Source of the DNA: a virus
Length of the DNA stretch: 64,000 nt
Strand: one strand, 5' to 3'
Virus record (IMG/VR): IMGVR_UViG_3300046821_000076
Span: 8,335-72,334 of that record
Position numbers and translations under genes: made by a program. Shown piece after piece: positions 2,159 through 46,889 of the stretch. The notes below the pieces were generated by a model that made no database searches, had not been told where the DNA came from, and saw only the letters and a program-made list of their open reading frames with translations. How positions within the stretch are numbered: the first letter of the stretch is position 1; each line of letters starts with the position of its first letter.

Positions 2159-2191
2159 ATCCTTTACTTACATATACCATGGTAAATACTT

Positions 2192-2408: not shown

Positions 2409-2593
2409 AAACAACCATGCCCCTATAGGTAGTGATACCTATTAGCAAACCTCCCTAATTCGGTGAAACTCTGACCATTAAGTTGAAGACAATACCGAGC
2501 AAGGCATTAGCCGTGTGTAACGACTATCGAAAAGCAGCTTAGCTGAACTGAGTAGAGTAAGACCCAAGTGGGTTTGAAATGGGAGGATGCTTA

Positions 2594-2622
2594 TTTACTT
2601 ACCACAACGTTAGTGCTATATT
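2594..2622 (+). promoter_or_regulatory. Sigma70-like internal promoter for intron HNH gene
   Basis: TTTACT-17 nt-TATATT with extended -10 TG, ~30 nt before GAGGA RBS/ATG 2654. Confidence 0.55.
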
Positions 2623-2653
2623 TAAATCTAGCTATAACATTGAGGAAAGTGCA

Positions 2654-3268: not shown

Positions 3269-3359
3269 ATAAGTATAAGAGTTAGTCTGATCCCTGTAGA
3301 AATACAGGGCGGGTGCTTTAACGTACCGCATACGCATAACGAACGTATGGGACAATATG

Positions 3360-5284
3360 TCGGTAAAGGTTTCTCTACAGGGCTTATTGAATCAGAAGTT
3401 ATTAATAAGTTTCGTGCTAACTTCATGGATAACACTTTCCATCTACAAGCAGAAACCAATATCAATGCACTAGCTAAACATAAAGCTCTACATAAAGGCA
3501 CAGACGTTACAGATGAAACTGAGCGCCTGATTAAAGAGTTTAATGCAGCAGGTTCGCTAATGTTCTCATTTGATGATGCAACTATGGCAGCAGTTAAACA
3601 GATGCGCCATAAGCTTATCATTGCAGGTTCAGGTGCGGTTAACTTGCAGGTAGATGAAGTAGGTACAAAGCTTGTAAACCAAGAAGATGTACTAGCAGGT
3701 TTCTTAGAACTGTATGACACAGGTAAGATGAAAGATAAGCTCATTAAGAATGGGCAAGAAAATCAACGTGTAGAACGTATTGAGGGACAGACTCCAGCAA
3801 ACATGCTTCTATTTGGTACACCAAGTAAGGTAATGGATGGAGGTAAAACTCAAGCGTATCTCGAAGCTATGCTAGAGATGGGATATGCAAGACGTTGTCT
3901 ATTTGGGTACTCAACCCATTTAGGAAAAGATACTACTTCTGATGCACAAACATTAGTGCAGTTACTTACTAATAGTAAGTCAGATGCAGTACTAAACAAC
4001 ATTGCTACTCATCTTGAACAGTTAGCTGATTATCCTAACCTGTCTAAAGAAATCACAATCCAAGAAGCTGAAGCAGTTTACTTAATGGAATATAAAATTA
4101 ACTGTTCAGAACGAGCAGAGCATTTTAAAGACCATGAGTTTAGTCTTAAAGCTGAGATGGACCATCGCTACTTTAAAGTACTCAAACTAGCAGGTTGCTA
4201 CGCATTCTTAGACTACAGTCCAGTTATCACTGTTGATCACTTGGATTACGCTATACGTATCGTAGAAGATTCAGGCGAAGACTTTAAACGTCTAATGACC
4301 CCTGAATACAACTATGAAAAGTTAGCAAAGTATTTAGCTGCTTTAAACCAACCAGTTACTCTACCTGATCTTGAGTATGCTCTACCTTACTTCCGTGGAA
4401 GCAGACAACAGAAAGAGTATTTGATTGAGTACGCTACTGCTTGGGGATATAAAAACAATGTTGTCATTAAGAAATCTTTTGACAATAACATTATGTTCTT
4501 AGCTGCAGACAGCTTAAAGCAAACCAATATAGATGAGATGATTATGTCTATCTCTACTCGTCTGTCTGAAGGTTACGAAGCTAAACGCGTACCATTTGAT
4601 CAGCTACACTTACTTGCTACAAACAATGAGTATCATTGGTGTAGTCACCACTTCCAAGGAGATATTCGTAGAGCTGAAAACGCATTACCTCTATTCAATA
4701 TGATTGTTCTAGATATTGATGGGACAATGCCACTTGGCGTAGCTCAAGACTTACTTAAACAGTATCGAGCATTCTTCTATACAACGAAGTCTCATACTGA
4801 AGAAGTACATCGCTATCGTATTATCTTACCGATCAACTACGAAGTAGAAATGGATCGTGAAGAATACAATGCGTGTATGGATGCAGTACTTCAAACCTTA
4901 CCGTTTGAATGTGATCCAGCAACTAAAGATATTGCACGTAAGTGGATGTGTAACGAAGGAGAGTACTTCTACCAAGAAGGCGAGCTATTCGATATCTTAC
5001 CGTTCATTCCAAATACTTCTCGAAGTGATGAACGTCAGCAAGCATTTCAAAACCAATCAGACTTAGACAATCTTGAGCGTTGGGTTCTAAACCATACAGG
5101 CGCAGGAAATCGTAACGATCAGATTTATAAGTATGCAATGGTACTTGCAGATGCAGGTAAATCATTAGAGCAGATTGGAGAGTTAGCACGTAACTTAAAC
5201 AATAAGCTAAGTGATCGTCTTTCTGATGAAGAGATAATGAACACAGTACTCAAATCTGTAAGTAATAAGATGAATCGAAAATAG
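3360..5284 (+). CDS. DNA primase (N4 gp43-like), exon 2
   Basis: GKG P-loop half, VDEVG Walker B-like, VLDIDG and YTTKSH..RYRII AEP-type primase motifs, C-terminal GNRND PriCT-like domain. Confidence 0.88.
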
Positions 5285-9187: not shown

Positions 9188-12100
9188 TTACAGCATGGAC
9201 GTTGCCATATTCATTGTGATTGGCTCATCAATCACTGAAGGGAATGCAAGTGCACCTTCACGGAATGGGATACCCATCTGATTCCAGATAATAGGATCAA
9301 TACCATAAGGAATATCTGTACCGTTATGCATTACTAATGCTTGTAGTAAAGCTCTTGCAGGCTTACGTTCTAAGAGTCTAAACAGTGCTTTCTGAATACG
9401 TAAGTTGTATTTAGAGAACATGATAATACCCATGTCGTTTAAGTACTGCATACCTTTACTTGTAGGCATGTCATAGTTAATGAAGGTATCACTGGCTATT
9501 TGAATAGCTGCGTCATGGTCTAAACGTTCTTTCTTCGGTGCGTTGTTACGGTAGTAGTTATACATTACGTACTTCGCAGTGAAGTCAGACAACTGAGTAG
9601 TGTTGTTCAAGAACTGATACAGAGGGGTTGTTGGAGAAACCAATAACCAATCTGCTGTTGAGCGTACTCCCGCAGGAATCTTACTCAGTTGTTTTTCAAA
9701 CTTACGTTCTAAAGCAGATTTGAAGCTAAACGCATCATCTTGGTTTAGAGCTACATCGTCTACAATACTAGGCATCATACCTTCATTGATAAACTCTGCT
9801 AGAGGATTGTTAGCAATAGCTTGCTCTAAACGTAACACCTCTTGCTCTAACTCCTTTTTATTACCCAAGCCTGTATACAACATCTGACGCTTAGCTGTAA
9901 GTAAAGCATTGTCTTTACGATGCTGCATAGCTGCACGTAATGCGTAAACAGTATCCTTTACGATAGCTGTCATACTAATACCATGAGCTTGCAGTAAGAA
10001 GGCATTAGAGATGATATTCATAGATAGTGTACGTAGGTTACGAATAACGATGAAGTTCTTTGTAAGAGCTACTGCTGACTGCATAGCACGTTCAGTACGA
10101 GCACCATATACACGAGCGTTATTTCCAAACACTGCTTTAAACAATGCTACGTATACTTTCTCGTAAAGATTACGTTCACTTCTTGGTTTATCAAAACCTT
10201 GAGTAGCTGAATACTTTTGGTATCCAAATACAGGAAGTAATACTTCTTTAGGTACATACAGTACACTCTTACCAGTAACCTCTCGAACATAGTCTCTAGT
10301 ATCTTGAGGCAATAAGTCCCAGAGCTTAGCTAACTCTTTATCACGTACGTTAAACCCTACAGCGATAAAGCTATCAGGATGACTATCATAGTTTTCTTGC
10401 TTCTCTTTAACTAGAGCATCAACAACCATACGGTTATTAAATGGAACATTCATCTTGTTAAAGTTAGTAGCAGCGTACTGACCTAGGATATTAGCAAAGT
10501 CATTATCTCTACCTAACAAGTTATCACGCTCATAGCTAGACATCTCATAACGATATCCAATGACATTACCATCCAGATCATACTTAGGAATCAACGCACT
10601 AGTACCATTACCTTTGTAAGGGTCATAGCCTGTATTAGCATGTAAGCTACGTTGCTTAGCTTGAGATGCTTTAAGAACAACTGATACATCTACGTCAGCA
10701 TCTGTACCACGAGGATTCTTACCAAACATTTCTAACGTACCTGAGATCATACGAGTTAAACCAGCATCTTCAGATAAGAACATACGTACCTTGTCACCAC
10801 GTGCTAATGGGTTAGGCTCAAGTACTTTAACCTCACGGAAGAATTGATCTTTAAAGTTCTTAGCTTCCTCATCAGTCTTAGCAAAGCGAATCTCATGGTT
10901 AGGGTTAGTAATCTCAGGGATATAACCTTTAGTCATGGATAACGGGTTATCTTTAAATAACTCATCTCGTGCTTCATCTGCTAAACCTTTATGGAATTTA
11001 AGGATAGCTTCAATACCATTCACATCTCCACGAGAAAGCTCTGTATCCATTACTGAACTGATCTCTGCTTTGATATCTGTAGGTGTATAGCGAATAGCGT
11101 ATAACGAAACCAATGAATCAATAGCAGCTACCAAGTCAGGGTCTACATCTTTAAGTGCCATCTTATTAGCAGTACATGCACCCATAGCAATCAACGTAGC
11201 ATTTAAAGCCAAGTCATTATTCTCAGGTCCTAGGTTAGTTACCATATATCGAGCAAGGTCTTTACTGCGAGAGATTAGATGTGTACCTCGAGTATCCAAT
11301 GACATCACTACACTAGCTTGCTGACTGATCACACTATTTAAGTACTCAGGGTTTTGGTACATACGATGAATCTGCTTAGGAGTGAAAGCTCCAAGAAGTG
11401 CTGAAACGTCTGCAACCATTAAATAAGTTAGTGATTCACGAGTCTTACGTTTAAGCTTCTTACCTCCATTTTTAAACGTAGAGAGTACATTTTTAATTGT
11501 GTACTCTTTCTCTAACTCTTTAGCCTGAGAAGTCTTCTTAACATGTCGCATCATCTTTTCAATAATGTTTTTGAAAGGAGTGTTTTCAGCCATCTCATTA
11601 ACAAGCTCTCCCCAGAATTCTAACTTACCTTCTGAATTGTTAAGAAGAGTCTCACGAGTATTATTTAAGTTATCCATCAGAGTACCTTCAATAGCTGATG
11701 TAGCTACGTTACGCACTAAGGTTACTTCAGGTACTGTAGTACTATTCATTGCTGGAATCTTACTAGCAACTTTACGTCTAGCCTTTATTACTGCATCGTC
11801 AATCTTATTCTCTACTTTAGAGATACGATCATTAATCTTGTTAACAATACCTCCACGATATTTTAAATCCACTTTAGCTACAGACTTTAAAGCAGACTTC
11901 ACATACTCAGACACTGGAGCACCAGACTTAACGCCTGAGATAAGCTGAGCAAGGAACTCAATAGCTTTCATTACATAAGCTTGTACCTTCTCATTAATGT
12001 CAGCATCCTTACTAACTTTATTACCTGACTCTGTTTTCACATTCGCAAGTAAAGCATTAATTTCTGCACTGCCTGAAACCATACTAGAGAATCTAGCTAA

Positions 12101-15100
12101 GTGATCATTCTCTTGAGTAATCTTAAACAAGTGATCCCACTTAGATTGAGCTATAGCTTTCTCTGCAGTAGTAGCCTTGGACCAATCACCTTTAAATAAG
12201 TCCTTTGGCTTAATCTTACTGCGCGCTTGGCTGAATGCCTTATCTAACTCAGCATAACTAATAGATAGTCCACGTTCTTTAGCTACAGCTTTCGTAGCTG
12301 CGTATACTGCCTCTACTGCAAAGCGTTCTAAAGGCTGTAGGATATATCCACTCAATACTGCCTTATCAGAAGTGACTGTTGTATTAGTTGCAATAGCATC
12401 CTGCCATACAGATTCAGGATCATTACTTAAACCAATACTATCAAACAGACCTGTATCCATACGATCAAAGATAGGTAGAGCAAACTCATCCATAGTCTCT
12501 TTAAGCTGAGCATCAAAGTTTGTACCTGTACCTTGTAACTGCTCCATTAGATCAGTAAGGTTCATAGCTTTAACAGATTGCTGAGCTTTACGTAATGAAG
12601 CTCCTAGTATGCTGCTAGGAACATTAGCTAAGCTATATGCTTTGGTGTTCTCCGCTCCTTCGCTTAATGTTAGTACGCTTCCAATTAAAGCCTCTAATCC
12701 AGTGATCTCACCTGACTCTAACTCAACAGGTTTTAAACCAAAAGCTTGAGAGATAAGCTTAGAGGTCGCTTTAACGAAGTCTTCTAGTCCACGTTTGCGT
12801 GTAGCTTTAACTTTCATCTGATTAAGTAGCATTGCTACTTCAGGACGTTCAAAGACAGTAGATACAAACTCATGATTATTCTTAATTGCATAAGCTACCC
12901 CGTCTGTTGGAGTAATGCCTTGATTAGCTAAGAACTTCACAAACTGTTCACGTAATGCAGTAATCTCTTTAGCTGCAGGAGTATCATTCTTCTCCAGTGC
13001 TAGGAAAGTAACTGCGTGCATCAATTCATGGATAGCAATAGCAGGAATAAAGTTACCGTTAGCATCTGCAGTTAGATAGATAACTGGCTTACCATCAACA
13101 TTAGAATTAAACCAACCATATCTACCCTTACTCCAGTGCTCCAAAGCTCTAGGATCGGTAGCGTGTAATACACGTACTTCTAACTGCTCAGGTAAAGCTT
13201 GCTTAACTAGATTGTACATCTGCCCACTAAGTACAGTAGCTAGGTTAGGATTCACATCCTTAGTTTTGTTAGTGTCATGTGCAATAGCAAAGTTGAGTAC
13301 TTTGATGTTTATAGGAGTGTCTTTAGGTACATTGCTTAGATAGAGCTGAGTTGTATTCTTATCTACACCAGTCTCAATCTTTTCTTCTGCAACCTTAGTT
13401 ACTTCTGCAACTGGAGCATCTTGATAAATACCTTTTGCACCTACCACACCAAAGATACTATCTAACTGTACAGCTTGTGGAACTAACTGTTTAATAGCCT
13501 CTTCACGTTTAGCTCTAACCTCTACTAGCTTCTCTTCAATACGTTTGATATCTGATTCAACAATTTTATACTCACCACCTTCTAAACCATATTGGTTTAC
13601 ATATGCGTACTCTAAGAGTGTATTAAGTTTTGCAATGTCTCGATCAAAGGCCGCATCCAACAATAAAGCTACTGCATCTCCAATAGAACTATTAGGAGCA
13701 AGATTACCTTTAGCGTCATACACATCATTAGCGTGAGATTTATTAATACTCTGAGCTGCCTTTTGCAATTCTGCTTTAGATGCTAGTTGTGCTTTAGAAT
13801 CTAAACCAAGAAAAGCAACTAATGGTTTAAGAGACCCAGTAATCATGTTGGAGTTGAAATCTACTTCGATAAGAGCATCAGTAGTTACTTTGTTTAGCTC
13901 TTTAGCAAACTGACGTCCTTTACCTACAATAGCTGTTAAAGCATCATGGATGTTCATAGTTACCCAATTACCTAATTGAGTATGGGCAATACCTGCATCG
14001 GTAGAGTGAACACCTTTAGGATTATTTGCTACACCTGCTGGAACAATCTCATACGTCTTAGCTTGTTGGGTTACATGGTATGTGTACTTAGATGAAGAGC
14101 TTGGTTTGAAACTTCCATCTTCGTTATTTAAACCAAGACTATTAACCTTACGTGCACCGAAGATATAGAACTCTGATTTATCCCGAGCTTGATCGCTACG
14201 CTTAGATGCAATCTTAACTAGAGGTAGTGAAGACTCTTCTGTATTCGTACTCTTACCTGCTAGGTATGACTTGAATGTAGGCATGTCTTTACGTAGATCA
14301 ACAAGAATCTGTTCATGAGCTTCTTTAGACAGACCTTCTACCTTCTTCACATCTTCAGGTAATGCTTCAGTACGCTTAGCTACTTCTGCATCATATACCG
14401 GTTTAAATAAACCCACAGCTAGCTGTCCTGCAGAAGTAATGTCATCACGAGCTTTGATGTACTCAGGGTAAGCTTCTTTAATAAACTCAGATACCACATG
14501 CATTAGCGGTTCTTCTAAAGCTTTACTGATAGCCTTATCTTGTTGAGGAGTTAAAACCAAGTTAAGAAGATCAGCATCATCTTTAACGTGTTCGTCAGCT
14601 TTCAAACCTCCACGTTTTAACAAGTAGTTTAATTTTTCAATAAACAACTTACGTGAAACACTATCTACAGATTCTGAACTGTACTTTTCTAAACCAGAAA
14701 GAATACTGTCTTTAATGTCTCCAATAATCCCTGCTGCTGTAGCTGGATTGCCAGAAGAGAAGTTAATCACTGTAGTAATTGTCTTAGTACCTTTACGCTC
14801 TAGCATCTTAGGATGTAGTACTTGAACTGCTTGAAGTACTTCACGAGTAATACTCTCAGCAGGTACATCTGAATTCTTAGCGTAAGCTACACGTCCTGCT
14901 TTAGCAGGAGCTAATGCAATAGCATTACGTAGATGAGTAATGTTGTACTCATACATATCAGCATTACCTAAGTCCTTATACTGAGGGACGTTAGTAATAC
15001 CGTCAGATTCTTTATACATACCACCTGCTCCATACATACCAGCAGCAAGAGTATTCATAAGTACTTGGGTTAAGAACGGACCATTAGTTACACCATCCAC

Positions 15101-18100
15101 TTCTAAAGAGATATCCACTTCAAACGCTGTATCTTTATTTGAAGTAAAAGCATTCTTGAAAGAAATTAGATTTACTAACGCTTTAAGAGACTGGGCTTTC
15201 ATACCTGCTTTATTAACAGCAGCTACTACTTTCTCTACCTGCTCTACAGGAACATTATCACCATTGATCATCTTCTCTAGGATAATCAATACTTCTGTAC
15301 CTGTACCATCACCTCGTAATGCCCACTCTAAATATTGTGGGGCATAGTTAAGGATTTGAGTTTTATCAGCAGTAGTTGATACACCTTCAGGCATTAAATC
15401 TTCAGTAAGTAAAGCTACTGTCTGAATGAATTCACCTAATGGAGTGATTGTATTGGTTTGACTATCTAATAGAGCTTCAGTATTACCAGTCTTAAAGAAT
15501 GCTTTGATACCATCACGTTCTACAGAAGTCATAGGGAACTTAACACGATGCTCTTTAAGCTCTACTAACCCACGGTGTAACTTACTAGCTACAGGATTAA
15601 GATCATTAGCCATGTGAGAACGTTGTTGGTTCTGTACTTCCTGTTCTAGATAGAAATCGTTATCTAAACCAAAACGAGATTTAGCTAGAGTATCTACACT
15701 TGCTTCATAGATTTGAATCTCACGTTCAATGCTTTGGTTATTAGCTTTAATACCATCACGCTTCATTGCTTGCTTTTTGTTAATCTCTGCTTCTGTAAGC
15801 TTACCGTACATACGATCACGTAAGGCTTTCAATGCATCAGTCTCACCTAAAGCAGTGTGTAATTTGTTTAGAGCCTTATTGATACCCCACTTATACGTAT
15901 GAGCATTACTTAGAGCTTCTACCTGTGCAGAAGGTATCTGAGTACCTAAACGATCTGTAGTCTTTTGAGTAACTAGCTTCTCTGCTTTAGGTTTAGATGT
16001 ACGAATTGGTTTAACTCGCGGAGCTACACCAAATGCTTTAGTAAGAACAGACTCACTACCTTTAGTTTCATTAAGTACTTTAGCTGACAATCCTGTAGGT
16101 TCAAAAGTTTTAGTGCTGTGAGGCAAGTTAATGAAGGTGTATTGATTGATAGCTTTTAACTCTGCTTCATCAATATCCTGATTATTATGTTCTTTGATGC
16201 TTCGTACAATTTCACGTACTGCTGCAGGCTCAATAGTATTCTCCTCTACATAACCTGCCATTGTCATACGATGTACTGCAAGCTGACCCAGAGCTACAGC
16301 TAACTTACTCTTACGAGTATCAGCCACATCTGACGTAAACTTGAAACCTAGCATATCAATAACTTTATTACCGATAGTCTCTGCAGCAGTTGGTTTAGCT
16401 GAGCCTACAGCTTTAAGCATGTCATAGATATGATATGGAACAGTTAGATCATTACCTTCAATACCGAATGCTTTAGGTAAGTTATCCATACGCATTAAAG
16501 TACTACCATTCTCCATAATCCAAGAGAATGCTGCGATAGTAATAGCGTCTTCAACTTGAGGTAGTAACTGGTCTACTTTCGCATCATTAGCTGCAGTTAC
16601 TTGAGCATCAAGATCAACAAGATAGTTAGCAAAGTTATTAAACGTCTCTAACCCAGCATCTTCAAGGAATGTGGTATTTGAATAGATACCTGTAGTAATG
16701 TTAGAGAAATTGTAGAACATTCCTCCTAACACTTTCATTGCTTCGTGCTGTTGATCAGTATGGTTAGGTACTGTCTTTTCTAAGTGGTCCTTAAGTATTT
16801 CTGTATACGCAGTATTGTATCCAGATTTAACTTCTTTACTACGTAAACGAGCAGTTACTGACTTAGGCATATCACGTAACAAAGTAGGTACGATGTTCAC
16901 AGCTTCACGTACTAAATCATGTTCAGCTAATGGTAAATCTTTATTAGCTTCACGTAATGCTTGAGCTTCTTTGTTAGCTGCTACTGTAGTACCAAAGTCA
17001 GGAACATATTCAGTAGTGGTATCTAAACCTCCAAACATATCTTTAAGCTCATTCTCGTTCAGAGGTATGTCGTAGATTTCGTATGGAGTCTCTGAAGTAC
17101 TAACAAAAGACTCATCAATATTACCTTCGTACTTAGGTTCGATACCCATAGCTGTTAGAGCATTTAATGTTGCACGAGTTTCAATTGCTACTTTATCATC
17201 AGTGAGTAAAGATTCACCGTTACTGTAGTAAACAGCACGATCATTATTGTCTATGTGAGATTGCTCATGACGAAGTAAAAACTCATTAAGTTTTCTAGGT
17301 GTATTTAGCTGCTGCTTTAAATAATCCAAAGAATATCCGTATACACCTAACTTAGCTAATACCAGTTTCTTCTGTTGAGAAGCTTGTTTAGTACGTACAG
17401 GAGCATCTTCTTGTACAACCCCTCCGAAGTAATCCCAGAACTCTTTACTGTTTTCAGCATCACGAGGATTTAACGTAATATTATTATTTTTATCTGTTCT
17501 AGCCATAGTAGGAATTGTTGAATCTACTATGTACTCGATACCATCAAACTTACGTACTTCTTGAGTAGGTAAATTATCATCAGGGGTTTCTTTCTTAATT
17601 GGTTTTTTATCTCCTCGAATTGCAGCGAGAAGAGCATCAACTTCAGGAGTTGATCCTTCAAAAGTAGCAGGAACATAAGCAGCTGTAACCCTTGGATCAC
17701 TCCCCATTGTAGCTAAGATACTGTTCTGAACTTGAGTAAACAGGCTGTGCTTATCTCGATTGTTTTTCCAACTAGCATATGGATTTATGTGGAAGTTATC
17801 TCCAACTTTAGTCCACCCATCTACAGAAGTATCAAATACAAGTGTGTCTGACTTATTCGGCTTGTCAGTTAAAATTTTAATATTACGGTCTTTAATAAAC
17901 GCTTTAGCACGTTCAATTACTAACGACTCGTATGAACGATCAGGGTGTACAATTTTAGCTAGACTCTCGAGTGTTAACTGCTTTTGCTTTTCCAACTCTT
18001 TAAATTGCACTGTTGTCAGACGTAAGAAAGGAGCATGGCTTTCTTCCTTGTTAGCTATACCTTTAGTCGTAAACTTAACAGTAAGGTCTAAGTCAAAAGC

Positions 18101-21100
18101 TATGCCATCAAGTACTTGATCAAGCATAATTTTTATAGTGGTAGGGTCTGTTTGTTTCAGTACAAGCCCATCATCCATCAAATAAGTTATGCTATCTTCT
18201 ACTTTATGGTAATCAACAACAGACTTTCCATTAGGCGTTAGCACTGAAGTTTTAGGATCACGTATAAAGTACTTGTTATACGTTTGAGGATTAGTAGCGT
18301 CTATTTCAAATAATTCACCTTTATCTAACCACTCTTTTATTGTGGCATCAGGATTATCTGTAGTTACACCATTGAGCTCTATTACCTTACTTGACGAAAT
18401 ATAAGAACCATCATCTTGTTTATTAAACTTAATAGTTAGAGGTTTCAATTCACGGTATTGTGGGGAAGTTAAACCAGTAAACTGAATGTCTCCTTTATCG
18501 TTCACCTTACGTACCATCTTAGGAGTGTTTACTACAGGAGTAGTATCAGCATTAGCATTCAGGTTACTTAATTCTCCTTGGTTCTCTACATACGCCTGTT
18601 CTTTTAGTTGAGCTGTCTGATCGAGGAGCTTCTCATACACGTTGGTAACTTCATTAGGCATACCTACAGTCTTGCCTATCAATTGAACCAAACGTTTGAA
18701 CATAGAGGTCTTAGCTTTAGACCTATCTACAGGTACAGAGATCTTTTTAAGTTCCTGAATTGCACCATACTCTGTAGTACCTACAGTTATGAACTCTGCA
18801 TTATTGATCAGCATATACTCTAGACGCGAAAGTGTACGTGGATCCTCTTTCTCAAGACGTTCACGATTTTGCTCAATATGATCAACAAGTCTAGGTTTGA
18901 GTACGTTGTTAATCTCATCCTGAATTTCAGATGAACTATCCAAGTTTTGCATAGTAACTGTATGGTGGATCTCATGAGCGAAAGCTTCTTGAGGGCTACT
19001 TGTTCTAGATATAAGTTCTCCACCATCACGTAGATCAATATAGATCATTGGGATATCGCCTAACTCAGGGATACGTATGTGGAAAGTTGTATGTCCATTC
19101 GAGTATCGCTCAGAATTAGCCAATACTTTTACGTAATCAAAAGGAATACTCTCTACGTCTGTGAAGACGTGAATGCCTGCATTGCCATCCGCAGCCTCTA
19201 CAAGAAAATCATATAACTCATCTAGGTAATTTAAGTCCCCAGTATTCTCCTTCTTACCCTTAATCTTAAATATAAGATCTTTAAGCTCAGGATCATGTAA
19301 GCTAAAACTTGTATTAAGGAGTTCAGTTGGTACGGTCAGATACTCGAGTTTTGTAGTCTCTTCTGAATCCTCCTCCTCCCCCTTCTTAGGAGTATTTACT
19401 ACAGGAGCGTTACTTTTTTTCTTTGGTTTCCACTCGCCAGGGGATACTTCTTCATAACCTTTAAGAGCAAGCTCTGCTGCTACCTCACGTACACCCACGT
19501 TGTCAGTACGTTTACGGTTATGTGCATCGTCAGTAATAATAATAGCACCTGCTTCAATAGCTTTATGCAACTCTGCTTTATCAAAAGGAATACGATCTTC
19601 ACGATTACTCTCAGCAGAAACAAACACTACATCATCAGAAGTATATGTACCTGTATTAGCAGACTCTCCAAAATCTTTTGCATATTGAGCAGTAGAAGAT
19701 TGAGCAGAACCTTGACCAATAAACTTAGTAGCCTTGTCTGCTTTAGCTTGATGTTTAGCAAGGTAAGATGACTTACCTGTAAGAACAACACCTTTAGTCT
19801 CTGGGGTTGTTCCAGAGGGTTGAGTTGTAGTAGGTACAACAGAACCCACACCTGAGTCATCAAACTGAATCTCAGTATTAGATAAGTCTGGTTTAATACT
19901 ATCTAGATCCACAGGCTCTAACTGTAAAGACGATTCATCAATACCTTCCCAGATATTCTCATCAGGATTTACTGGAGTATTTTGAGGAGTACTCTTACCT
20001 TTTGCTTGGTTTGCTTGTGCTTGTTGCTGTCTTCCTTCATCAGCTAACTGTTGTGCTTCTAGATCAACACCGTTGCTCGTATCTAGGCTATCAGCCATTT
20101 GCTGCATACGTTCCATAGGATCGCTAGTATCATTCGTAGAACGAGCAGCTAGAGCATCTACAGAAGCCTTAACTTTATTGATTAAGTTAGACTCCATAGA
20201 AATAGCTGATACTAGGCTTTCTGAGTGTCCATACCCCCCTGGATTGTACTTAATATTTAACGCACCATTCTCACGAGTATTCTCAATTGTGTCACCAGTA
20301 TTGATAAACCATTTATTCTCGCCTGCAACACGAGCTACTTGTACAACAGTACCTGGAGCAGCTTTAGCAGCTTCCCATGCTTGCGTTATTGTATCTGCTT
20401 TAGACTGATGACTCTTAGCAAAGCGATCTAACATTTTAGAAGTAACTTCTTGCATACGAGTATTACCGGATGCTACTGCCTTACTCATATCATCCATATA
20501 AGACATGATTGGTTTAGAGTAGTCTGAACCATTAATAATATCTTTACTTACTCGTTTGATAGACTGAGTATCATCATATGCTTGACGTGCTTCAGACAGG
20601 GTACGAAGTACTTCACGATCAGCTTCAGCATACTTAACATCTTTAGATGCTTTAGCTAACTCTGCTGCAGTATATGAAGAAGGTGCTCCAAGAATCTTAG
20701 ATGGAATAGTAGTAGGGTTATTAGATAGATCATCTGCTAGAGCTTCAGAGTTATTACGAATCTCAGTAGCTTTGTTTAATTGGTTTATTAAACCAGAGTA
20801 TTCTTTCTTAACTCGATCTGCATATTCAGGATCGTTAGCATTAGCATCAATCTCTGCCATTACAGCATCTGCGTTAGCAAGTGCTTCTTCTAACTGAGCT
20901 ACTTGAGGGTTAGAAGGATCAGTATCTTTAGCACTTTGTACTTGTGCTCGGAACTCTTCTACACCTGTACGTGTACCTTCTACGTCTCCAAGAGATTCAA
21001 TGATGTTCTCTAAGATATCTAAACGACTAGCAGAAGCTCGTAATACCTCTTCCTGTTTAGCTTTAATCTCTTGCTTAGCTTCAGGGGTTTCAGCTTGAGA

Positions 21101-22648
21101 TGCTTCCTGTGTCATACGTACAGTAGCCGCTTTAGGATTAAAGTTAGGAGAGCTAGGAGATGCAAAGTCTTCTGTAGGAATTGATTGATCAATCTCAGGA
21201 CTATCTTCTTTAGCCTTATTCAGATTACGTTCTGCAAGTGCTGCTTTAGCTTGAAGCCCTGTACCTAAGACTGCATTAGCTGTAGCTGCCGGAGTACCGA
21301 TAGCTCCTGTAATAGCTGCACCCATTGTAAAGGCTTCACCCATAGCAGCAGAATCAAGAGTGTTGTTTAGAGAACCCCAGTTAACTTCAATCTGTTGCTG
21401 TACTGCTTCTGTTACACCCTCTGCTAATGCTGATCTACCTAACTGCCCTGCAGATTGGACCACAGCTGCATTACGTATTTTATCAATAGCAGTCTTTTCA
21501 ATAGCACTAGGAACTGAGCTAGATTTTAAACCAAGAGAACTGCTAAGAGATTTACCTTTTAAAACTCCTGCAGCGATAACTGATTCTGCATAGTTAGCTG
21601 CAGTATACACAGCAGTCATTCCTAGGATACCTAGAGACTCTCCAGCAGTAGGTGCTCGTAATTCACGATCAACAAACGCATCATAAGAATCGTTTTGTAC
21701 TCGTGTAGCATCTACAACTATAGCAGGCATACGGGTATATGGTAATAAATACGGAGTCATGGCTGCAGCTTCTTCTAGAAGATATGCAGGATTTTCACTT
21801 AATGCATTTGCGGACTCTTTAGCAGATTTAGCAAACGTACCTAAATGTTTAGTTGCCCAACCAAAGTAATCACCTTGATCATAAGCATCACGAGCTTCAC
21901 GTTGAGCTAGTGCAGTCTCTTTTGGAGAAGTACCATTGTATTTCTTATGAGCTTGATATGCTTTCTCTCCAGTATGGTCATACCAGTTACGTGCATTAAA
22001 AGAACCTGCAATACCTTTCTCACGATCACCTGTTACTCGCTTTCCATAATCTTCTGCAGCATTGCTCCAATTAAGACGTTGCTTAGCCTCAGTCTCAGAA
22101 CCGTCTGGATTATATAGTAAAGCTTGTTCTTCAGGCGTTAATTGGTTTTGTTGCAAACGGTTTGTTAAGTAAGCTTTACGTTCAGTAGCCTCGCGTAAAT
22201 CTAAATAACCCCCTAAAGCCACAGCCTTAGCAGGATCGTCTAATACTGCTAACTCTTCTTGATACTTAGGATTATTCTTTTGATCTTGTAGTTTATAGAA
22301 AGCTGTTTCAGCATTCTTATCTAAACCAATAGTATTAGCAGCACCTATGCCATTAACAATAGCTCCACTAGCTTGTTCAAATAATTCACCAAACGCTCCT
22401 GCAGTTCTACGCCCTACGTTTAGAGCTTTTGAACCTATATTACGATTATCAAATTGATCACCGTAGTCTGCGTACTGTTGCAGTAATTCAGTAGCATTTA
22501 CTCGTGGAGCATAGTCTTGGGTATTAACCTGTGAGCGTGCTCCAATGGTTTCCTCATACGGAGTTACCTTAGGTTGCTGCTTCTTACTTAACTCCTGTGC
22601 AATCCTAGCAAATGCGTTTTGAACTTGATCATCTTTATATCCTGCCAT
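9188..22648 (-). CDS. Virion-encapsidated RNA polymerase (N4 gp50-like), 4486 aa
   Basis: Giant ORF; motif A EVDGVTNGP, motif B RKGTKTITTVINFS, motif C NIHDA; almost no Cys; position at end of late operon. Confidence 0.95.
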   Translation of the reverse strand: MAGYKDDQVQNAFARIAQELSKKQQPKVTPYEETIGARSQVNTQDYAPRVNATELLQQYADYGDQFDNRNIGSKALNVGRRTAGAFGELFEQASGAIVNGIGAANTIGLDKNAETAFYKLQDQKNNPKYQEELAVLDDPAKAVALGGYLDLREATERKAYLTNRLQQNQLTPEEQALLYNPDGSETEAKQRLNWSNAAEDYGKRVTGDREKGIAGSFNARNWYDHTGEKAYQAHKKYNGTSPKETALAQREARDAYDQGDYFGWATKHLGTFAKSAKESANALSENPAYLLEEAAAMTPYLLPYTRMPAIVVDATRVQNDSYDAFVDRELRAPTAGESLGILGMTAVYTAANYAESVIAAGVLKGKSLSSSLGLKSSSVPSAIEKTAIDKIRNAAVVQSAGQLGRSALAEGVTEAVQQQIEVNWGSLNNTLDSAAMGEAFTMGAAITGAIGTPAATANAVLGTGLQAKAALAERNLNKAKEDSPEIDQSIPTEDFASPSSPNFNPKAATVRMTQEASQAETPEAKQEIKAKQEEVLRASASRLDILENIIESLGDVEGTRTGVEEFRAQVQSAKDTDPSNPQVAQLEEALANADAVMAEIDANANDPEYADRVKKEYSGLINQLNKATEIRNNSEALADDLSNNPTTIPSKILGAPSSYTAAELAKASKDVKYAEADREVLRTLSEARQAYDDTQSIKRVSKDIINGSDYSKPIMSYMDDMSKAVASGNTRMQEVTSKMLDRFAKSHQSKADTITQAWEAAKAAPGTVVQVARVAGENKWFINTGDTIENTRENGALNIKYNPGGYGHSESLVSAISMESNLINKVKASVDALAARSTNDTSDPMERMQQMADSLDTSNGVDLEAQQLADEGRQQQAQANQAKGKSTPQNTPVNPDENIWEGIDESSLQLEPVDLDSIKPDLSNTEIQFDDSGVGSVVPTTTQPSGTTPETKGVVLTGKSSYLAKHQAKADKATKFIGQGSAQSSTAQYAKDFGESANTGTYTSDDVVFVSAESNREDRIPFDKAELHKAIEAGAIIITDDAHNRKRTDNVGVREVAAELALKGYEEVSPGEWKPKKKSNAPVVNTPKKGEEEDSEETTKLEYLTVPTELLNTSFSLHDPELKDLIFKIKGKKENTGDLNYLDELYDFLVEAADGNAGIHVFTDVESIPFDYVKVLANSERYSNGHTTFHIRIPELGDIPMIYIDLRDGGELISRTSSPQEAFAHEIHHTVTMQNLDSSSEIQDEINNVLKPRLVDHIEQNRERLEKEDPRTLSRLEYMLINNAEFITVGTTEYGAIQELKKISVPVDRSKAKTSMFKRLVQLIGKTVGMPNEVTNVYEKLLDQTAQLKEQAYVENQGELSNLNANADTTPVVNTPKMVRKVNDKGDIQFTGLTSPQYRELKPLTIKFNKQDDGSYISSSKVIELNGVTTDNPDATIKEWLDKGELFEIDATNPQTYNKYFIRDPKTSVLTPNGKSVVDYHKVEDSITYLMDDGLVLKQTDPTTIKIMLDQVLDGIAFDLDLTVKFTTKGIANKEESHAPFLRLTTVQFKELEKQKQLTLESLAKIVHPDRSYESLVIERAKAFIKDRNIKILTDKPNKSDTLVFDTSVDGWTKVGDNFHINPYASWKNNRDKHSLFTQVQNSILATMGSDPRVTAAYVPATFEGSTPEVDALLAAIRGDKKPIKKETPDDNLPTQEVRKFDGIEYIVDSTIPTMARTDKNNNITLNPRDAENSKEFWDYFGGVVQEDAPVRTKQASQQKKLVLAKLGVYGYSLDYLKQQLNTPRKLNEFLLRHEQSHIDNNDRAVYYSNGESLLTDDKVAIETRATLNALTAMGIEPKYEGNIDESFVSTSETPYEIYDIPLNENELKDMFGGLDTTTEYVPDFGTTVAANKEAQALREANKDLPLAEHDLVREAVNIVPTLLRDMPKSVTARLRSKEVKSGYNTAYTEILKDHLEKTVPNHTDQQHEAMKVLGGMFYNFSNITTGIYSNTTFLEDAGLETFNNFANYLVDLDAQVTAANDAKVDQLLPQVEDAITIAAFSWIMENGSTLMRMDNLPKAFGIEGNDLTVPYHIYDMLKAVGSAKPTAAETIGNKVIDMLGFKFTSDVADTRKSKLAVALGQLAVHRMTMAGYVEENTIEPAAVREIVRSIKEHNNQDIDEAELKAINQYTFINLPHSTKTFEPTGLSAKVLNETKGSESVLTKAFGVAPRVKPIRTSKPKAEKLVTQKTTDRLGTQIPSAQVEALSNAHTYKWGINKALNKLHTALGETDALKALRDRMYGKLTEAEINKKQAMKRDGIKANNQSIEREIQIYEASVDTLAKSRFGLDNDFYLEQEVQNQQRSHMANDLNPVASKLHRGLVELKEHRVKFPMTSVERDGIKAFFKTGNTEALLDSQTNTITPLGEFIQTVALLTEDLMPEGVSTTADKTQILNYAPQYLEWALRGDGTGTEVLIILEKMINGDNVPVEQVEKVVAAVNKAGMKAQSLKALVNLISFKNAFTSNKDTAFEVDISLEVDGVTNGPFLTQVLMNTLAAGMYGAGGMYKESDGITNVPQYKDLGNADMYEYNITHLRNAIALAPAKAGRVAYAKNSDVPAESITREVLQAVQVLHPKMLERKGTKTITTVINFSSGNPATAAGIIGDIKDSILSGLEKYSSESVDSVSRKLFIEKLNYLLKRGGLKADEHVKDDADLLNLVLTPQQDKAISKALEEPLMHVVSEFIKEAYPEYIKARDDITSAGQLAVGLFKPVYDAEVAKRTEALPEDVKKVEGLSKEAHEQILVDLRKDMPTFKSYLAGKSTNTEESSLPLVKIASKRSDQARDKSEFYIFGARKVNSLGLNNEDGSFKPSSSSKYTYHVTQQAKTYEIVPAGVANNPKGVHSTDAGIAHTQLGNWVTMNIHDALTAIVGKGRQFAKELNKVTTDALIEVDFNSNMITGSLKPLVAFLGLDSKAQLASKAELQKAAQSINKSHANDVYDAKGNLAPNSSIGDAVALLLDAAFDRDIAKLNTLLEYAYVNQYGLEGGEYKIVESDIKRIEEKLVEVRAKREEAIKQLVPQAVQLDSIFGVVGAKGIYQDAPVAEVTKVAEEKIETGVDKNTTQLYLSNVPKDTPINIKVLNFAIAHDTNKTKDVNPNLATVLSGQMYNLVKQALPEQLEVRVLHATDPRALEHWSKGRYGWFNSNVDGKPVIYLTADANGNFIPAIAIHELMHAVTFLALEKNDTPAAKEITALREQFVKFLANQGITPTDGVAYAIKNNHEFVSTVFERPEVAMLLNQMKVKATRKRGLEDFVKATSKLISQAFGLKPVELESGEITGLEALIGSVLTLSEGAENTKAYSLANVPSSILGASLRKAQQSVKAMNLTDLMEQLQGTGTNFDAQLKETMDEFALPIFDRMDTGLFDSIGLSNDPESVWQDAIATNTTVTSDKAVLSGYILQPLERFAVEAVYAATKAVAKERGLSISYAELDKAFSQARSKIKPKDLFKGDWSKATTAEKAIAQSKWDHLFKITQENDHLARFSSMVSGSAEINALLANVKTESGNKVSKDADINEKVQAYVMKAIEFLAQLISGVKSGAPVSEYVKSALKSVAKVDLKYRGGIVNKINDRISKVENKIDDAVIKARRKVASKIPAMNSTTVPEVTLVRNVATSAIEGTLMDNLNNTRETLLNNSEGKLEFWGELVNEMAENTPFKNIIEKMMRHVKKTSQAKELEKEYTIKNVLSTFKNGGKKLKRKTRESLTYLMVADVSALLGAFTPKQIHRMYQNPEYLNSVISQQASVVMSLDTRGTHLISRSKDLARYMVTNLGPENNDLALNATLIAMGACTANKMALKDVDPDLVAAIDSLVSLYAIRYTPTDIKAEISSVMDTELSRGDVNGIEAILKFHKGLADEARDELFKDNPLSMTKGYIPEITNPNHEIRFAKTDEEAKNFKDQFFREVKVLEPNPLARGDKVRMFLSEDAGLTRMISGTLEMFGKNPRGTDADVDVSVVLKASQAKQRSLHANTGYDPYKGNGTSALIPKYDLDGNVIGYRYEMSSYERDNLLGRDNDFANILGQYAATNFNKMNVPFNNRMVVDALVKEKQENYDSHPDSFIAVGFNVRDKELAKLWDLLPQDTRDYVREVTGKSVLYVPKEVLLPVFGYQKYSATQGFDKPRSERNLYEKVYVALFKAVFGNNARVYGARTERAMQSAVALTKNFIVIRNLRTLSMNIISNAFLLQAHGISMTAIVKDTVYALRAAMQHRKDNALLTAKRQMLYTGLGNKKELEQEVLRLEQAIANNPLAEFINEGMMPSIVDDVALNQDDAFSFKSALERKFEKQLSKIPAGVRSTADWLLVSPTTPLYQFLNNTTQLSDFTAKYVMYNYYRNNAPKKERLDHDAAIQIASDTFINYDMPTSKGMQYLNDMGIIMFSKYNLRIQKALFRLLERKPARALLQALVMHNGTDIPYGIDPIIWNQMGIPFREGALAFPSVIDEPITMNMATSML
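18518..19407. repeat. 23-bp direct repeat pair inside vRNAP (18518-18540 and 19385-19407)
   Basis: CTTAGGAGT(G/A)TTTACTACAGGAG, 22/23 identical, 867 bp apart, both encoding PVVNTPK. Confidence 0.9.
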
Positions 22649-22753: not shown

Positions 22754-25009
22754 TTATTTAGTATTGAAACGTTTTCTCATCTCCTCATTACCTGCTTTGA
22801 TAGCGTTTGTGTAGGTAGCCTCAAACTTCTTTTGTTGATCGCTTTTTTGCTTAGCTTTTTCAATACGTTCATTAGCTAGTTTAAGACGTTCCTTAGCTAT
22901 ACGTTGCTTTTCACGCTCTGCAGCGGCTATACGTATTTTTTCACGTGCTGCAAGTTGACTAGCTTTCTTAGCTTCTTTATCAGCCTTCTCCTTAGCCTCT
23001 ATAGCTTTAAGACGTTCAGTAGCTTCTTTTTGCGCTTGTCTAATTAAGTCTCGATTTTTATCCCTTACTTTACTATCTGGAGTACCGAATAAATTTCCAG
23101 GTATAACATTATCAACCTTACCTCGCTTAACATAAAAATCCACAATGGCTTGCTTAGTAGGTGTAGGTGTAGGGTTCTTAGCCTGCACAGGAGTAGTAGA
23201 GGTGGGGACTGAGGTTTTAGTAGGCGTAGTCTTAGTAGCTGCAGGTGTACCTTTACCTTTACTAGCTGGAGGTGGAGTTGTAGCAGCAGCTTTATCTACC
23301 TTCTTATCAAGAGCTTCTTGAACTTTTACAGTAGGCTTACCATAAAGAGATTGGTAACGAGCAGGATCAATATGCAGTAAAGCTTCTTTAGCAGATATGG
23401 ATACACCCTCAGCTTCAAACTCTTGTTGAATCTTCTGAACATAGGTATTACTAGGATGGGAAGCTTTAGCTACATGCTTCTTACGTTTAGCATCAATACT
23501 AATTTCCCCTTTGATAAGGTTATCAATACTCTTCTTTAAACCAGCAGCAGAGTTGTAAACTTCAAAAAACCCTCCTGGCTGAGACTGCCAAGCTTTAGCC
23601 CTGTTATATACATTGGTAATACCCTCTGCAGATAACCCTGCAAGTTGTGGGTTAGCTTGCATAGCCTTAGCAATATCGAAAGCATCTTGAGTAACTTTAG
23701 AACCTTCCTCCTTGGCTGTAAGCCCTGCAAGAACATTACCTACATTAACAGGCTGATCTTTGAGAGCTAAGCCCTCGTTGTACTTGAGCATAGCATCTTG
23801 GTATTCACCTCGAATCTTCTGCTGTACCTTACGATCAATACCTGCCAATGGAACATTTGCTGGAGTGTTACCTGCTACCCCAGACCCTCCATTAGAATAT
23901 TCAGCCATTGCCTTGTTCACACGAGGTACATAGTCACGTGTCTCTTTAGGCAAATAAGAAAGCCAATTACCTCCTGATTTTTTCGCTTTCTTAACTGCCT
24001 GCTCAACATTACCTCCCCCAGCATTAAATGCAGCAGTTGCTTGGTCCTCAGTAAATCCATGTTGTTTCTGCACACGTGATCTATATTCCATACCCCATCT
24101 GATTTGTTCTTCAGGAGTAGAGTTTTTAAGATCAATAGGAGGCATACCGTATCCAGGGTCTGCCGCAGTCGCAGGCATAATCTGAATAATACCTTGAGCA
24201 CCTGCAGGAGATACCGCATTAGGATTACCTTTACTTTCAGTATGAATCATACCTGCTGCTAAAGGTCCAAACACACTAGCGTACCTAGCAATAGCAGCTC
24301 CTCCTCCACCTCCAGTAGTATATTCTGTACCATCAGGAGCTACCCGTACACTGCCAGCTCCTGAATCTTGATCTGCTTTATAGAGCACTTCGCCCCTTCT
24401 CAACGCACTTTCTTGCTCTGCAAGCGTAGCCGTACGGTTGTACTGATCAGCATCTTGGTTTAGCTTTTGTAACTCCCAATAGTTTTTATTGGTAAAGTCA
24501 CGAGCATTAGTTAAGTACTGACCAACTTTAGTTGAAATATCTGTGATATCTACACCTGTATCAGCTATAGCTTGAATTTGTGCAAGCTCCTCTGGTGTAG
24601 CATCTAAAGCCGCTAACTGTTTCCCATAGATTGCAGCTACTTGAGGACGTGCAGCTATGTTAGCCTTCTTATCCTTGAAATCCATTTCAGTAGATTGACG
24701 TTGCATAAGTGTTGCAGGACGTTCATCCATAGCAGTACGTACAGCATCCATGTCGTAGCCTGATCCCCAACGTTGTTGCATTGCAGCAATATTTGCTTGA
24801 GCAATTGCTAACTCTTCAGGATTCTTTGCTTGGTTTAAAGCAGTGAGCATGTCATTAGTATTCTGCTTCTTAAGATTATCTTGATAACCTTTGTAAGCAG
24901 TACCTATTTGCTCTACTCCTGCTACTGATTGAGCTTGAGCCTTTTGAATAGCATCTAAGTATTTAGATGTATCAATAGGGTCCATATTCTCCCACGTTAA
25001 TTGACTCAT
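22754..25009 (-). CDS. Internal virion/ejection protein with lytic transglycosylase (SLT) domain (gp51 position)
   Basis: MIHTESKGNPNAVSPAGAQGIIQIMPATA, AFNAG, ETRDYV SLT motifs. Confidence 0.88.
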   Translation of the reverse strand: MSQLTWENMDPIDTSKYLDAIQKAQAQSVAGVEQIGTAYKGYQDNLKKQNTNDMLTALNQAKNPEELAIAQANIAAMQQRWGSGYDMDAVRTAMDERPATLMQRQSTEMDFKDKKANIAARPQVAAIYGKQLAALDATPEELAQIQAIADTGVDITDISTKVGQYLTNARDFTNKNYWELQKLNQDADQYNRTATLAEQESALRRGEVLYKADQDSGAGSVRVAPDGTEYTTGGGGGAAIARYASVFGPLAAGMIHTESKGNPNAVSPAGAQGIIQIMPATAADPGYGMPPIDLKNSTPEEQIRWGMEYRSRVQKQHGFTEDQATAAFNAGGGNVEQAVKKAKKSGGNWLSYLPKETRDYVPRVNKAMAEYSNGGSGVAGNTPANVPLAGIDRKVQQKIRGEYQDAMLKYNEGLALKDQPVNVGNVLAGLTAKEEGSKVTQDAFDIAKAMQANPQLAGLSAEGITNVYNRAKAWQSQPGGFFEVYNSAAGLKKSIDNLIKGEISIDAKRKKHVAKASHPSNTYVQKIQQEFEAEGVSISAKEALLHIDPARYQSLYGKPTVKVQEALDKKVDKAAATTPPPASKGKGTPAATKTTPTKTSVPTSTTPVQAKNPTPTPTKQAIVDFYVKRGKVDNVIPGNLFGTPDSKVRDKNRDLIRQAQKEATERLKAIEAKEKADKEAKKASQLAAREKIRIAAAEREKQRIAKERLKLANERIEKAKQKSDQQKKFEATYTNAIKAGNEEMRKRFNTK

Positions 25010-45638: not shown

Positions 45639-46889
45639 ATGAAACACTTCTCAGCTTTAGACTACCTGTGTATTGATATTGCCAACAACGTTGGTAAACA
45701 AGATGGCTTCCTTGGAGACAAGGATACCTTTGAAAATCGTATCCAATGGGTTAAAGACAATGTCAATGATCTACCTGAATACTACGTTAGAGCAGAAGAT
45801 AAGTATCAATACATCAAAGGTGTATTAGCTTTAGCTGATGTCCTTGGAGGTAAGCCTACAGGTCATACTGTAGCTCTTGATGCAATCTGCTCAGGCATAT
45901 CTATTATGTCTGCAATTACAGGTTGTCTCAAAGGCTGTAAGGCTACAGGACTTGTAGCCACAGGCTACCGTCCTGATGCCTATACAGCCGTTACAGACGC
46001 TATGAACAGAATGCTATCTAAGCAAGGTATCCAAACAACAATCTCCCGTAAGGTAGCTAAGGAAGCAGTAATGCAAGCGAGCTATGGAAGTACTCGTAAA
46101 CCAAAAGAAACTTTTGGCGAGAATACTCCTGAACTACGTGCATTTGAAGATGCTTGTATGGAGGTAGCCCCTGAAGCCTTTAAGCTTATGAGAGTATTAA
46201 TTGATGCTTGGAATCCTAACGCTTTAGAACACTCTTGGTATATGCCTGATGCATTCAGCGTAAAGATCAAAGTACTAGAACAGAAGGAAACCAAGATATA
46301 CATCAAAGAATTGGACGATGCTTGTGTGACTATGATCACTAAAGAGAATAAACCAGTTAAACGTGGTGTATCTCTTTGCGCTAACATGGTTCACGCATGT
46401 GACTCGTACATACTACGCTCTATGGTACGTAGATGCTCATATGACGTATATAACATCACTGAGGTACTAACAGTCATTAACAATGAATTAGTAGCTCCTA
46501 CGAGCTATACAGTGATCCCTGATAAAATGGAAGAACTCCTAGCTCTCTACGCTGTTATGAATATTCCTGATACTCGTATCTTGGATTACATCACTCCATC
46601 TACAGTCAATGCAGTACCTAAGAAATACTTACTTCAATTGAAGAATACTATTTCTATGATGCTTCATTACGGTAGCTTTGATATCCTTACTATTCACGAC
46701 GCGTTTCGCTGTGCTCCATCTAATTGCAATGCAGTACGCTACTGGTATGCAGAGATTCTAGCTGAGCTTGCTGACTCTAATATCCTAGAGTGTATCTATG
46801 AACAAATCACAGGTACTCATCGTAAGTTTAGAAAAGCTGTACCAAACCTTTCATCTCTAATCCGTCAAGCAGATTACCAACTCTCATGA
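45639..46889 (+). CDS. RNA polymerase II subunit 2 (N4 gp16-like)
   Basis: Motif A LDAICSG, motif B RKVAKEAVMQASYG, ANMVHACD, motif C IHDAF. Confidence 0.93.
   Translation: MKHFSALDYLCIDIANNVGKQDGFLGDKDTFENRIQWVKDNVNDLPEYYVRAEDKYQYIKGVLALADVLGGKPTGHTVALDAICSGISIMSAITGCLKGCKATGLVATGYRPDAYTAVTDAMNRMLSKQGIQTTISRKVAKEAVMQASYGSTRKPKETFGENTPELRAFEDACMEVAPEAFKLMRVLIDAWNPNALEHSWYMPDAFSVKIKVLEQKETKIYIKELDDACVTMITKENKPVKRGVSLCANMVHACDSYILRSMVRRCSYDVYNITEVLTVINNELVAPTSYTVIPDKMEELLALYAVMNIPDTRILDYITPSTVNAVPKKYLLQLKNTISMMLHYGSFDILTIHDAFRCAPSNCNAVRYWYAEILAELADSNILECIYEQITGTHRKFRKAVPNLSSLIRQADYQLS

Follow-up and report, generated by a model that had tools for sequence, protein, structure and literature searches.

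Phenylalanine in motif B of an N4-type virion RNA polymerase and its association with a histidine ahead of motif C

Introduction

The question addressed here was raised by a 64,000-nucleotide stretch of viral DNA (the window; bases 8335 to 72334 of the 72,334-base IMG/VR virus record IMGVR_UViG_3300046821_000076, rated 93% complete), in which a giant gene for a virion RNA polymerase (vRNAP; protein P0001, 4486 amino acids, aa) carried Phe at the motif B position occupied by Tyr in the vRNAP of phage N4 and in the RNA polymerase (RNAP) of phage T7: is the choice between ribose and deoxyribose relaxed in this enzyme, or does another residue make up for the Tyr? The first-pass annotation of this DNA had read the Phe as a natural Tyr-to-Phe substitution and had offered relaxed sugar selectivity and compensating residues as its two possible consequences. 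N4 vRNAP Y678F reportedly loses discrimination against dNTPs. In T7 RNAP, the Y639 hydroxyl hydrogen-bonds the ribose 2'-OH and H784 is an active-site residue at the hybrid's minor groove (PMC4551944), while the Y639F mutant accepts 2'-modified and deoxy substrates (PMC4551944, PMC6535458; both papers are cited throughout from excerpts).

Results

Identification of the vRNAP and its motif B

As judged from its sequence, P0001 is a complete N4-type vRNAP with intact catalytic residues, and the enzyme is presumably active. It belonged to the vRNAP family across both polymerase and C-terminal domains: (i) residues 1766 to 4482 matched PHROG 2206 'virion RNA polymerase' at 1257 bits (profile positions 865 to 3402 of 3406) and (ii) the profile of alignment A2 (P0001 plus 24 relatives) matched solved structures of N4 gp50 (E 2.5e-190) and crystal chains of mini-vRNAP (E about 1e-39). 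The first-pass annotation had proposed a structural alignment to N4 mini-vRNAP, and the comparison made here was a Foldseek search with an AlphaFold2 model (m6720b0e4f850; mean pLDDT 86.1, pTM 0.83) of residues 1960 to 3159, which displayed the right-hand fold common to T7 and mitochondrial RNAPs. The best Foldseek match was N4 mini-vRNAP 2po4 (E 1.6e-25, TM 0.61/0.66), and the top 10 were exclusively N4 vRNAP entries (E 1.6e-25 to 9.7e-21), with TM 0.61 to 0.68 against isolated polymerase-domain entries (ranks 1 to 8) and 0.61, normalised by query length, against longer gp50 (ranks 9 and 10); yeast and human mitochondrial RNAPs and T7 RNAP followed at E 1.4e-9 to 5.9e-7 and TM 0.27 to 0.50.

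Single-sequence searches reached less far. Pfam gave no family at E <= 0.01 on the 1200-aa vRNAP domain and nothing relevant at E <= 1 on the whole of P0001, and the threshold of PF00940 (T7-like RNAP) was not reached, the similarity of the domain to T7-type RNAPs being too low for this family to score; in the protein database a precomputed PF21867 label stood on P0001 and on every relative, while the local Pfam-A scan of P0001 yielded no such match. A profile was needed for the match to PDB; searched alone with phmmer, the polymerase region hit no PDB sequence. The vRNAP gene had no megablast match in the phage collection; tblastn matched 161 phage records, those listed being mostly annotated as virion RNA polymerase, and the closest named phage was Acinetobacter phage XC38 (27% identity), followed at about 26% by Cbunavirus phages (Nepra, CB1, CB4, phiA41, Possum, and EK8) and Acinetobacter phage Presley.

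The catalytic residues were compared in a 19-row MAFFT alignment (the window protein, N4, and 17 other vRNAPs). All residues matching N4 R424, K437, R440, E557, D559, R666, K670, and D951 were conserved in P0001, with R2343, D2518, R2618, K2622, and D2902 corresponding to N4 R424, D559, R666, K670, and D951, respectively. The literal T/DxxGR pattern was missing from P0001, but its Arg was retained, as in most relatives, and was found in 19/19 rows; the motif A Asp and the motif C His and Asp were invariant in alignments A1 and A2.

The minus-strand reading around motif B was L-E-R-K-G-T-K-T-I-T-T-V-I-N-F-S-S-G (codons of R2618 at 14795-14797, of K2622 at 14783-14785, and of S2631 at 14756-14758; Table 1). 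Translation of the open reading frame thereby bore out the Phe, encoded by TTC, that had been annotated in first pass within a span (14759-14797) reaching from the Phe codon through the Arg codon; instead of the Tyr of the pattern Rx3Kx7YG, P0001 had F2630-S2631. The counterpart in N4 gp50 (NC_008720) was R1663-G-I-A-K-N-P-L-T-I-T-I-Y1675-G (R666, K670, and Y678 in mini-vRNAP numbering), and whole-protein BLASTP (P0001 2472 to 2649 against N4 gp50 1510 to 1694, E 3e-7), which also covered motif A, placed F2630 on Y1675. The equivalence of this site to N4 Y678 and T7 Y639, already claimed in first pass, was upheld by this alignment, by the 19-row alignment, and by the T7 profile comparison (see below). 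Three matches to R-x3-K-x7-[YF]-[GSA] emerged when all six frames of the entire window were scanned: vRNAP motif B, RKVAKEAVMQASYG (46047-46088), and a third that lay in a frame of 22 codons and is noise. The second lay in a 416-aa PF00940 reading frame (E 2.2e-13), in agreement with the earlier remark that RNAP II of this virus keeps Tyr-Gly.

The ending ...VINFS was shared by 21/21 close relatives from other assemblies (P0002 to P0022, 84 to 93% identical over the polymerase domain), which ruled out a sequencing error as the source of the Phe, and ...VINFA was found in two relatives at 43 to 44% identity.

Prevalence of Phe among vRNAPs

A survey of the site across the family, likewise suggested in first pass, was run on four partly overlapping kinds of material. 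(i) A word-index search retrieved 26 relatives of P0001, comprising 21 with ...VINFS, two with ...VINFA, two (23 to 24% identity) with ...MVFG, and one with ...TTYG. (ii) A HMMER search of 1.84 billion cluster representatives (50% identity) gave 307 matches at E <= 1e-3; among the best 150 of these 307, motif B ended in FG (102), FS (2), FA (1), YG (39), YS (3), or YN (2) as read by alignment to the hidden Markov model, i.e., 105 Phe against 44 Tyr, the remaining one being a 103-aa fragment without the site; motif B Arg and Lys were present in 149/149 full-length representatives. (iii) Among 80 IMG/VR loci found by the motif A pattern, a sample partly overlapping the others, 54 had Phe and 26 Tyr. 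(iv) The 12 named phages comprised three with Phe (LUZ7, LIT1, and 98PfluR60PP) and nine with Tyr (XC38, Presley, Nepra, EK8, K17alpha62 with Y-S, pVa5, JSF3, pYD6-A, and PG11).

The substitution was in all probability a real and ordinary 'F-type' variant and the commonest state in the vRNAP family. The first-pass annotation had implied that it is rare, which did not hold: besides being the commonest residue, the Phe of LUZ7 and LIT1 was in print by 2010, when Ceyssens et al. noted a 'Y678F substitution' in the legend of Supplementary Fig. S2 (PMC3715699, cited from an excerpt). This was the sole mention of the natural substitution met in the literature material, and the excerpts of PMC4496689, PMC11445570, and PMC13434306 held no discussion of a vRNAP Phe. 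The consensus Rx3Kx7YG invoked in first pass stood for T7-like RNAPs and for N4; for the vRNAP family, with its Phe majority, it failed.

Phe in motif B was always accompanied by His ahead of motif C

All alignment columns were screened for association with the Tyr/Phe state, and the column of H2881 was the strongest, with His in 100% of Phe rows and 22% of Tyr rows. The association was followed on a FastTree phylogeny of 167 polymerase-core segments (642 columns; 153 database proteins, N4, the 12 named phages, and the window; 112 Phe and 55 Tyr rows), for which the fragment P0088 and 19/21 of the near-identical relatives P0002 to P0022 were set aside, P0011 being kept as representative. His was present in 112/112 Phe rows, while the 55 Tyr rows had Gln (37), His (12), Met (2), Val (1), Leu (1), Ile (1; N4), or a gap (1; the JSF3 locus ends early). 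The IMG/VR loci gave the same picture: Phe with His in 51, Tyr with Gln in 19, Tyr with His in six, and four too short, so that His was found in 51/51 Phe loci covering both sites. Phe without His was thus encountered in 0/163 cases (112 tree rows plus 51 IMG/VR loci).

The 167-row tree required at least 11 Tyr/Phe changes, seven of them forced by starred (well-supported) branches, and it fell into two parts. (i) In the 128-row part, N4, the Vibrio phages, and the Pseudoalteromonas phage (all Tyr) lay near the base, and an inner group of 120 rows held 107 Phe rows and 13 scattered Tyr rows; His occurred in six of the eight basal Tyr rows (of the other two, N4 had Ile and the JSF3 locus fell short of the site), and the 13 nested Tyr rows had His (6), Gln (5), or Met (2). 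(ii) The 39-row part contained 34 Tyr rows (XC38, Presley, Cbunavirus, and Klebsiella types), 32 of which had Gln and the rest Val or Leu; its Phe rows, and its only His, belonged to a single five-row clade (P0001, P0011, P0023, P0024, and P0028; support 100, starred), the clade of the window, in which Phe was found in 26/26 examined members. IQ-TREE on 44 chosen rows nested the window clade among Tyr relatives in the same manner. This suggests an origin of Phe in the window clade apart from that in the large F-type clade, to which the Pseudomonas phages belong.

Parsimony on the 167-row tree placed seven changes between His and non-His, five of which were losses: four shared a branch with a Phe-to-Tyr change and one lay inside a Tyr group. 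No loss fell on the 87.7 units of Phe-state branch, while the Tyr-state His-bearing branches, by comparison, added up to 11.7 units. The sole gain within the 39-row part, from Gln to His, coincided with the Tyr-to-Phe branch. In seven independent pairs taken across starred branches, His moved the same way as Phe in three to five and the opposite way in none.

Ten near-sister pairs differing in Tyr/Phe were scanned for other consistently changing columns, and only variable surface-like columns without a common direction emerged. S2631 was rejected as a general compensator because Phe was followed by Gly in 102/105 Phe representatives (Ser or Ala elsewhere); YS and YN also existed. Literature searches met no paper linking an H784-like site to vRNAPs or Y639 to Schitoviridae, and the Phe/His coupling appears to be a new result, if a modest lead.

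Probable correspondence of H2881 to T7 H784

H2881 is likely equivalent to H784 of T7 RNAP. It stood in V-H-S-T-D-A, 21 residues ahead of motif C (I-H2901-D2902), and T7 RNAP (NC_001604) had V-H784-S-Q-D787-G, 28 residues ahead of I-H811-D812; D2884 was invariant in alignments A1 and A2. In a local hhalign comparison with a T7-family profile, which was shallow because the T7 protein search gave close relatives only (>= 74% identity), the best hit paired H2881 with H784, D2884 with D787, and the two HD motifs (E 0.0049 for a single comparison, probability 7%), and the third hit paired vRNAP motif B with T7 R627-Y639. A forced long alignment of vRNAP to T7 had a probability below 1% and was mostly wrong outside the C-terminal palm, and when the full vRNAP alignment was compared with T7 as a single sequence, only the part from T/DxxGR to motif A could be aligned (E 0.035, probability 1.5%). 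In family A DNA polymerases this position is occupied by a Gln that senses the minor groove, which would match the alternation of Gln and His.

In T7, H784 is the second active-site residue tied to selection of the 2' group: Y639F/H784A takes bulky 2' groups and a mutant with H784S and wild-type Y639 takes 2'-F pyrimidines (PMC4551944), and simulations implicate H784 in the selection between rNTPs and dNTPs (PMC6535458).

Table 1. Positions in the window of the vRNAP gene, its motifs, and other features
Feature	Position	Strand	Basis
vRNAP gene, 4486 aa (P0001)	9188..22648	-	Open reading frame list and translation
T7-like central polymerase domain, modelled over residues 1960-3159	13172..16771	-	AlphaFold2
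R2343, Arg of T/DxxGR motif (N4 R424); motif here Q-N-Q-Q-R	15620..15622	-	MAFFT alignment
Motif A, E2516-V-D2518 (N4 E557, D559)	15095..15103	-	BLASTP against N4 and 19-row alignment
Motif B, R2618-KGT-K2622-TITTVIN-F2630-S2631 (N4 R666, K670, Y678, G679)	14756..14797	-	Translation, BLASTP against N4
TTC codon of F2630 (site of N4 Y678, T7 Y639)	14759..14761	-	Translation
H2881-S-T-D2884, matching T7 RNAP H784-S-Q-D787; His coupled to Phe	13997..14008	-	Column analysis, hhalign
Motif C, H2901-D2902 (N4 F950-D951; T7 H811-D812)	13943..13948	-	19-row alignment, profile comparison
Conserved HExxH region, P0001 residues ~3200-3215, downstream of polymerase domain	~13000-13030	-	A2 profile positions 2009-2126
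Hypervariable cassette, P0001 residues ~950-1850	17099-19801	-	Comparison with eight relatives
751-aa protein with SLT lytic transglycosylase domain	22754-25009	-	PF01464, E 1e-15
RNAP II large subunit (N4 gp16-like), 416 aa, motif B RKVAKEAVMQASYG at 46047-46088	45639..46889	+	PF00940 E 2.2e-13, regular-expression scan, genome search

Comparison of P0001 with known polymerases

P0001 was compared with four kinds of known enzyme. N4 gp50 (PDB 2po4, 3c2p, and 3q0a; full-length 9pnq/9pnr) resembled P0001 in being a giant protein of the virion with a T7-like polymerase domain at its centre; the two shared the same Arg, Lys, and Asp residues in T/DxxGR and motifs A, B, and C, and a C-terminal domain alignable at 21% identity over 892 columns. 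They differed in length (3500 aa in N4), in the motif B Tyr of N4, and in the His site, where N4 had Ile (or Gly, by a one-residue alignment shift).

At residues 1947-1948, N4 gp50 had Phe before the motif C Asp, where His was found in the window, in 16 other aligned vRNAPs, and in T7 (the JSF3 locus being too short); around residue 1920, the His or Gln conserved in the H-S-x-D motif was missing; and N4 occupied the longest terminal branch of the tree (2.2). By these alignments N4, the model enzyme, is atypical at the motif B site, the His site, and motif C.

LUZ7, LIT1, and 98PfluR60PP (Migulavirinae, Littlefixvirus) shared with P0001 a motif B ending in Phe and a His at the H784-like site; their motif B was R-x-V-I-K-x-PLTAMMFG, the published natural 'Y678F' case in the excerpt of PMC3715699. 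Unlike the window protein, they belonged to the other major clade (23 to 25% domain identity) and had Gly instead of Ser after the Phe. XC38, Presley, and Cbunavirus (Nepra and EK8) were the nearest named relatives (26 to 27% identity over 98 to 99% of the 1200-aa query) and fell in the same major clade as the window in both trees; motif B of XC38 began with R-K-G-A-K, as in the window clade, but in these phages motif B carried Tyr and the His site was occupied by Gln. T7 RNAP belonged to the same fold family and had motif B, the H-S-x-D motif, and motif C in the same order. T7 naturally combines Tyr and His, whereas P0001 was in a Y639F-like state with an H784-like His; T7 Y639F is an engineered form with relaxed 2' selectivity (PMC4551944, PMC6535458).

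Other features of the vRNAP gene and the window

The 751-aa SLT-domain protein adjoined the vRNAP gene at the place where N4 has gp51 (virion structural protein). The record size, this neighbour, and RNAP II are consistent with the predicted packaging of the vRNAP in the virion and its injection for early transcription from hairpin promoters.

Between the conserved N-terminal part of the vRNAP and its polymerase domain lay a hypervariable cassette, which was deleted, replaced, or less than 30% identical, in varying combinations, in eight relatives that were otherwise 70 to 98% identical; vRNAP lengths ranged from 3793 to 4486 aa because of this variation. The cassette of the window contained two HExxH motifs (residues 1225 and 1794) and had no match in Pfam or by phmmer against PDB sequences; in the cassette region of relatives, precomputed labels were PF25176 in P0012 and PF00075 in P0020. 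A third, conserved HExxH was located at residue 3207, and the region around it (A2 profile positions 2009 to 2126) matched the phage ejection or internal virion proteins 9sfn_G (E 3.7e-12) and 8vb2_A (E 6.5e-8), which hints at a module that vRNAPs have in common with ejection proteins from other podophages.

The 64 kb of the window yielded no tRNA genes in an ARAGORN search. The close vRNAP relative P0006 was labelled by NCBI as from an Acinetobacter sp. metagenome-assembled genome; this label and the window's G+C content of 38% point to a putative Acinetobacter-like host.

Discussion

The strict Phe/His coupling favours a compensating residue over a plain loss of sugar selectivity. With a little less than an even chance of being right, H2881 would carry ribose recognition in the window's enzyme and back up the missing Tyr hydroxyl; the enzyme would still make RNA, although its 2' selectivity may be somewhat looser than that of N4. 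More generally, vRNAPs may need at least one of two ribose sensors, the motif B Tyr or the H784-like His, and at the His site of Tyr-type enzymes Gln, Met, Val, Leu, or Ile would be tolerated. This rule, put forward tentatively, fits the facts that Phe never occurred without His and that His decayed only with Tyr, and the window clade would be its second independent Tyr-to-Phe replicate. Of the two consequences named in first pass, compensation has thereby gained comparative support.

Several points weigh against this. The nesting of the window clade among Tyr relatives is a best estimate and unsecured, because the approximately unbiased (AU) test keeps a tree joining the window clade to the large part (log-likelihood difference 12.05, p 0.231), and in that tree the His could have been inherited rather than gained together with the Phe; two origins of Phe would still be more parsimonious there, given the Tyr found in the basal lineages of the large part. 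The independent-pairs test was underpowered and not significant (seven starred-branch pairs, median sign-test p 0.125), and the Poisson-style contrast of His losses depends on the FastTree topology and on parsimony. Support for equating H2881 with H784 comes from the motif pattern and from profile alignments that are weak. Of the 307 matches, the 150 representatives are the ones closest to the query, and family-wide frequencies could differ. Literature searches found no biochemical data on any F-type vRNAP.

Plain relaxation of selectivity is a less likely alternative: Phe would lower rNTP/dNTP discrimination as in T7 Y639F, tolerated since the injected vRNAP makes few early transcripts and rNTPs far exceed dNTPs, and the site would drift between Tyr and Phe while the His is kept for unrelated reasons, e.g., minor-groove checking. 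The many Tyr/Phe switches on the tree (at least 11), the T7 Y639F precedent (PMC4551944, PMC6535458), and the His of 12/55 Tyr tree rows, including most basal ones, speak for such drift, but a need for His independent of Phe clashes with five losses on Tyr-state branches against none on about 88 Phe-state units, and with the complete lack of Phe without His among the 163 cases. Rather improbable is mere phylogenetic inertia, by which Phe had a very small number of origins, each in a lineage that carried His by chance, with no functional link between the two. Only two clear Phe origins were seen, the sign test was not significant, and a topology that has the His of both the window clade and the large clade shared by descent is not rejected by the AU test, all of which inertia accommodates; against it stand five His losses confined to Tyr revertants with none in the 107 Phe rows of the same large clade, a pattern independent of where the window clade is placed. 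An artefact (sequencing or assembly error, dead gene, or misaligned motif B) has a negligible chance given the Phe motif in 21/21 close relatives and five more distant clade members, a reading frame open over 4486 codons, the invariant motif B Arg and Lys and catalytic Asp residues, and the direct BLASTP alignment of the site with N4.

For the family, the textbook 'Rx3Kx7YG' does not fit most N4-like virion polymerases, and the Phe substitution itself matters little; the window adds a new, deeply divergent clade with an already known substitution. As for applications, these natural enzymes are already in a Y639F-like state, and T7 Y639F variants already fill that need. If the compensation by His is true, the natural enzymes with Phe and His would be selective RNA polymerases without the canonical Tyr, and changing that one His would yield a scaffold of natural evolutionary origin whose 2' selectivity is very loose. 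Through the coupling, what had been seen in engineered T7 RNAP (Y639F, H784A) becomes an experiment that nature has repeated in hundreds of enzymes, and the coupling also offers a direct and cheap test of how single-subunit RNA polymerases choose between ribose and deoxyribose.

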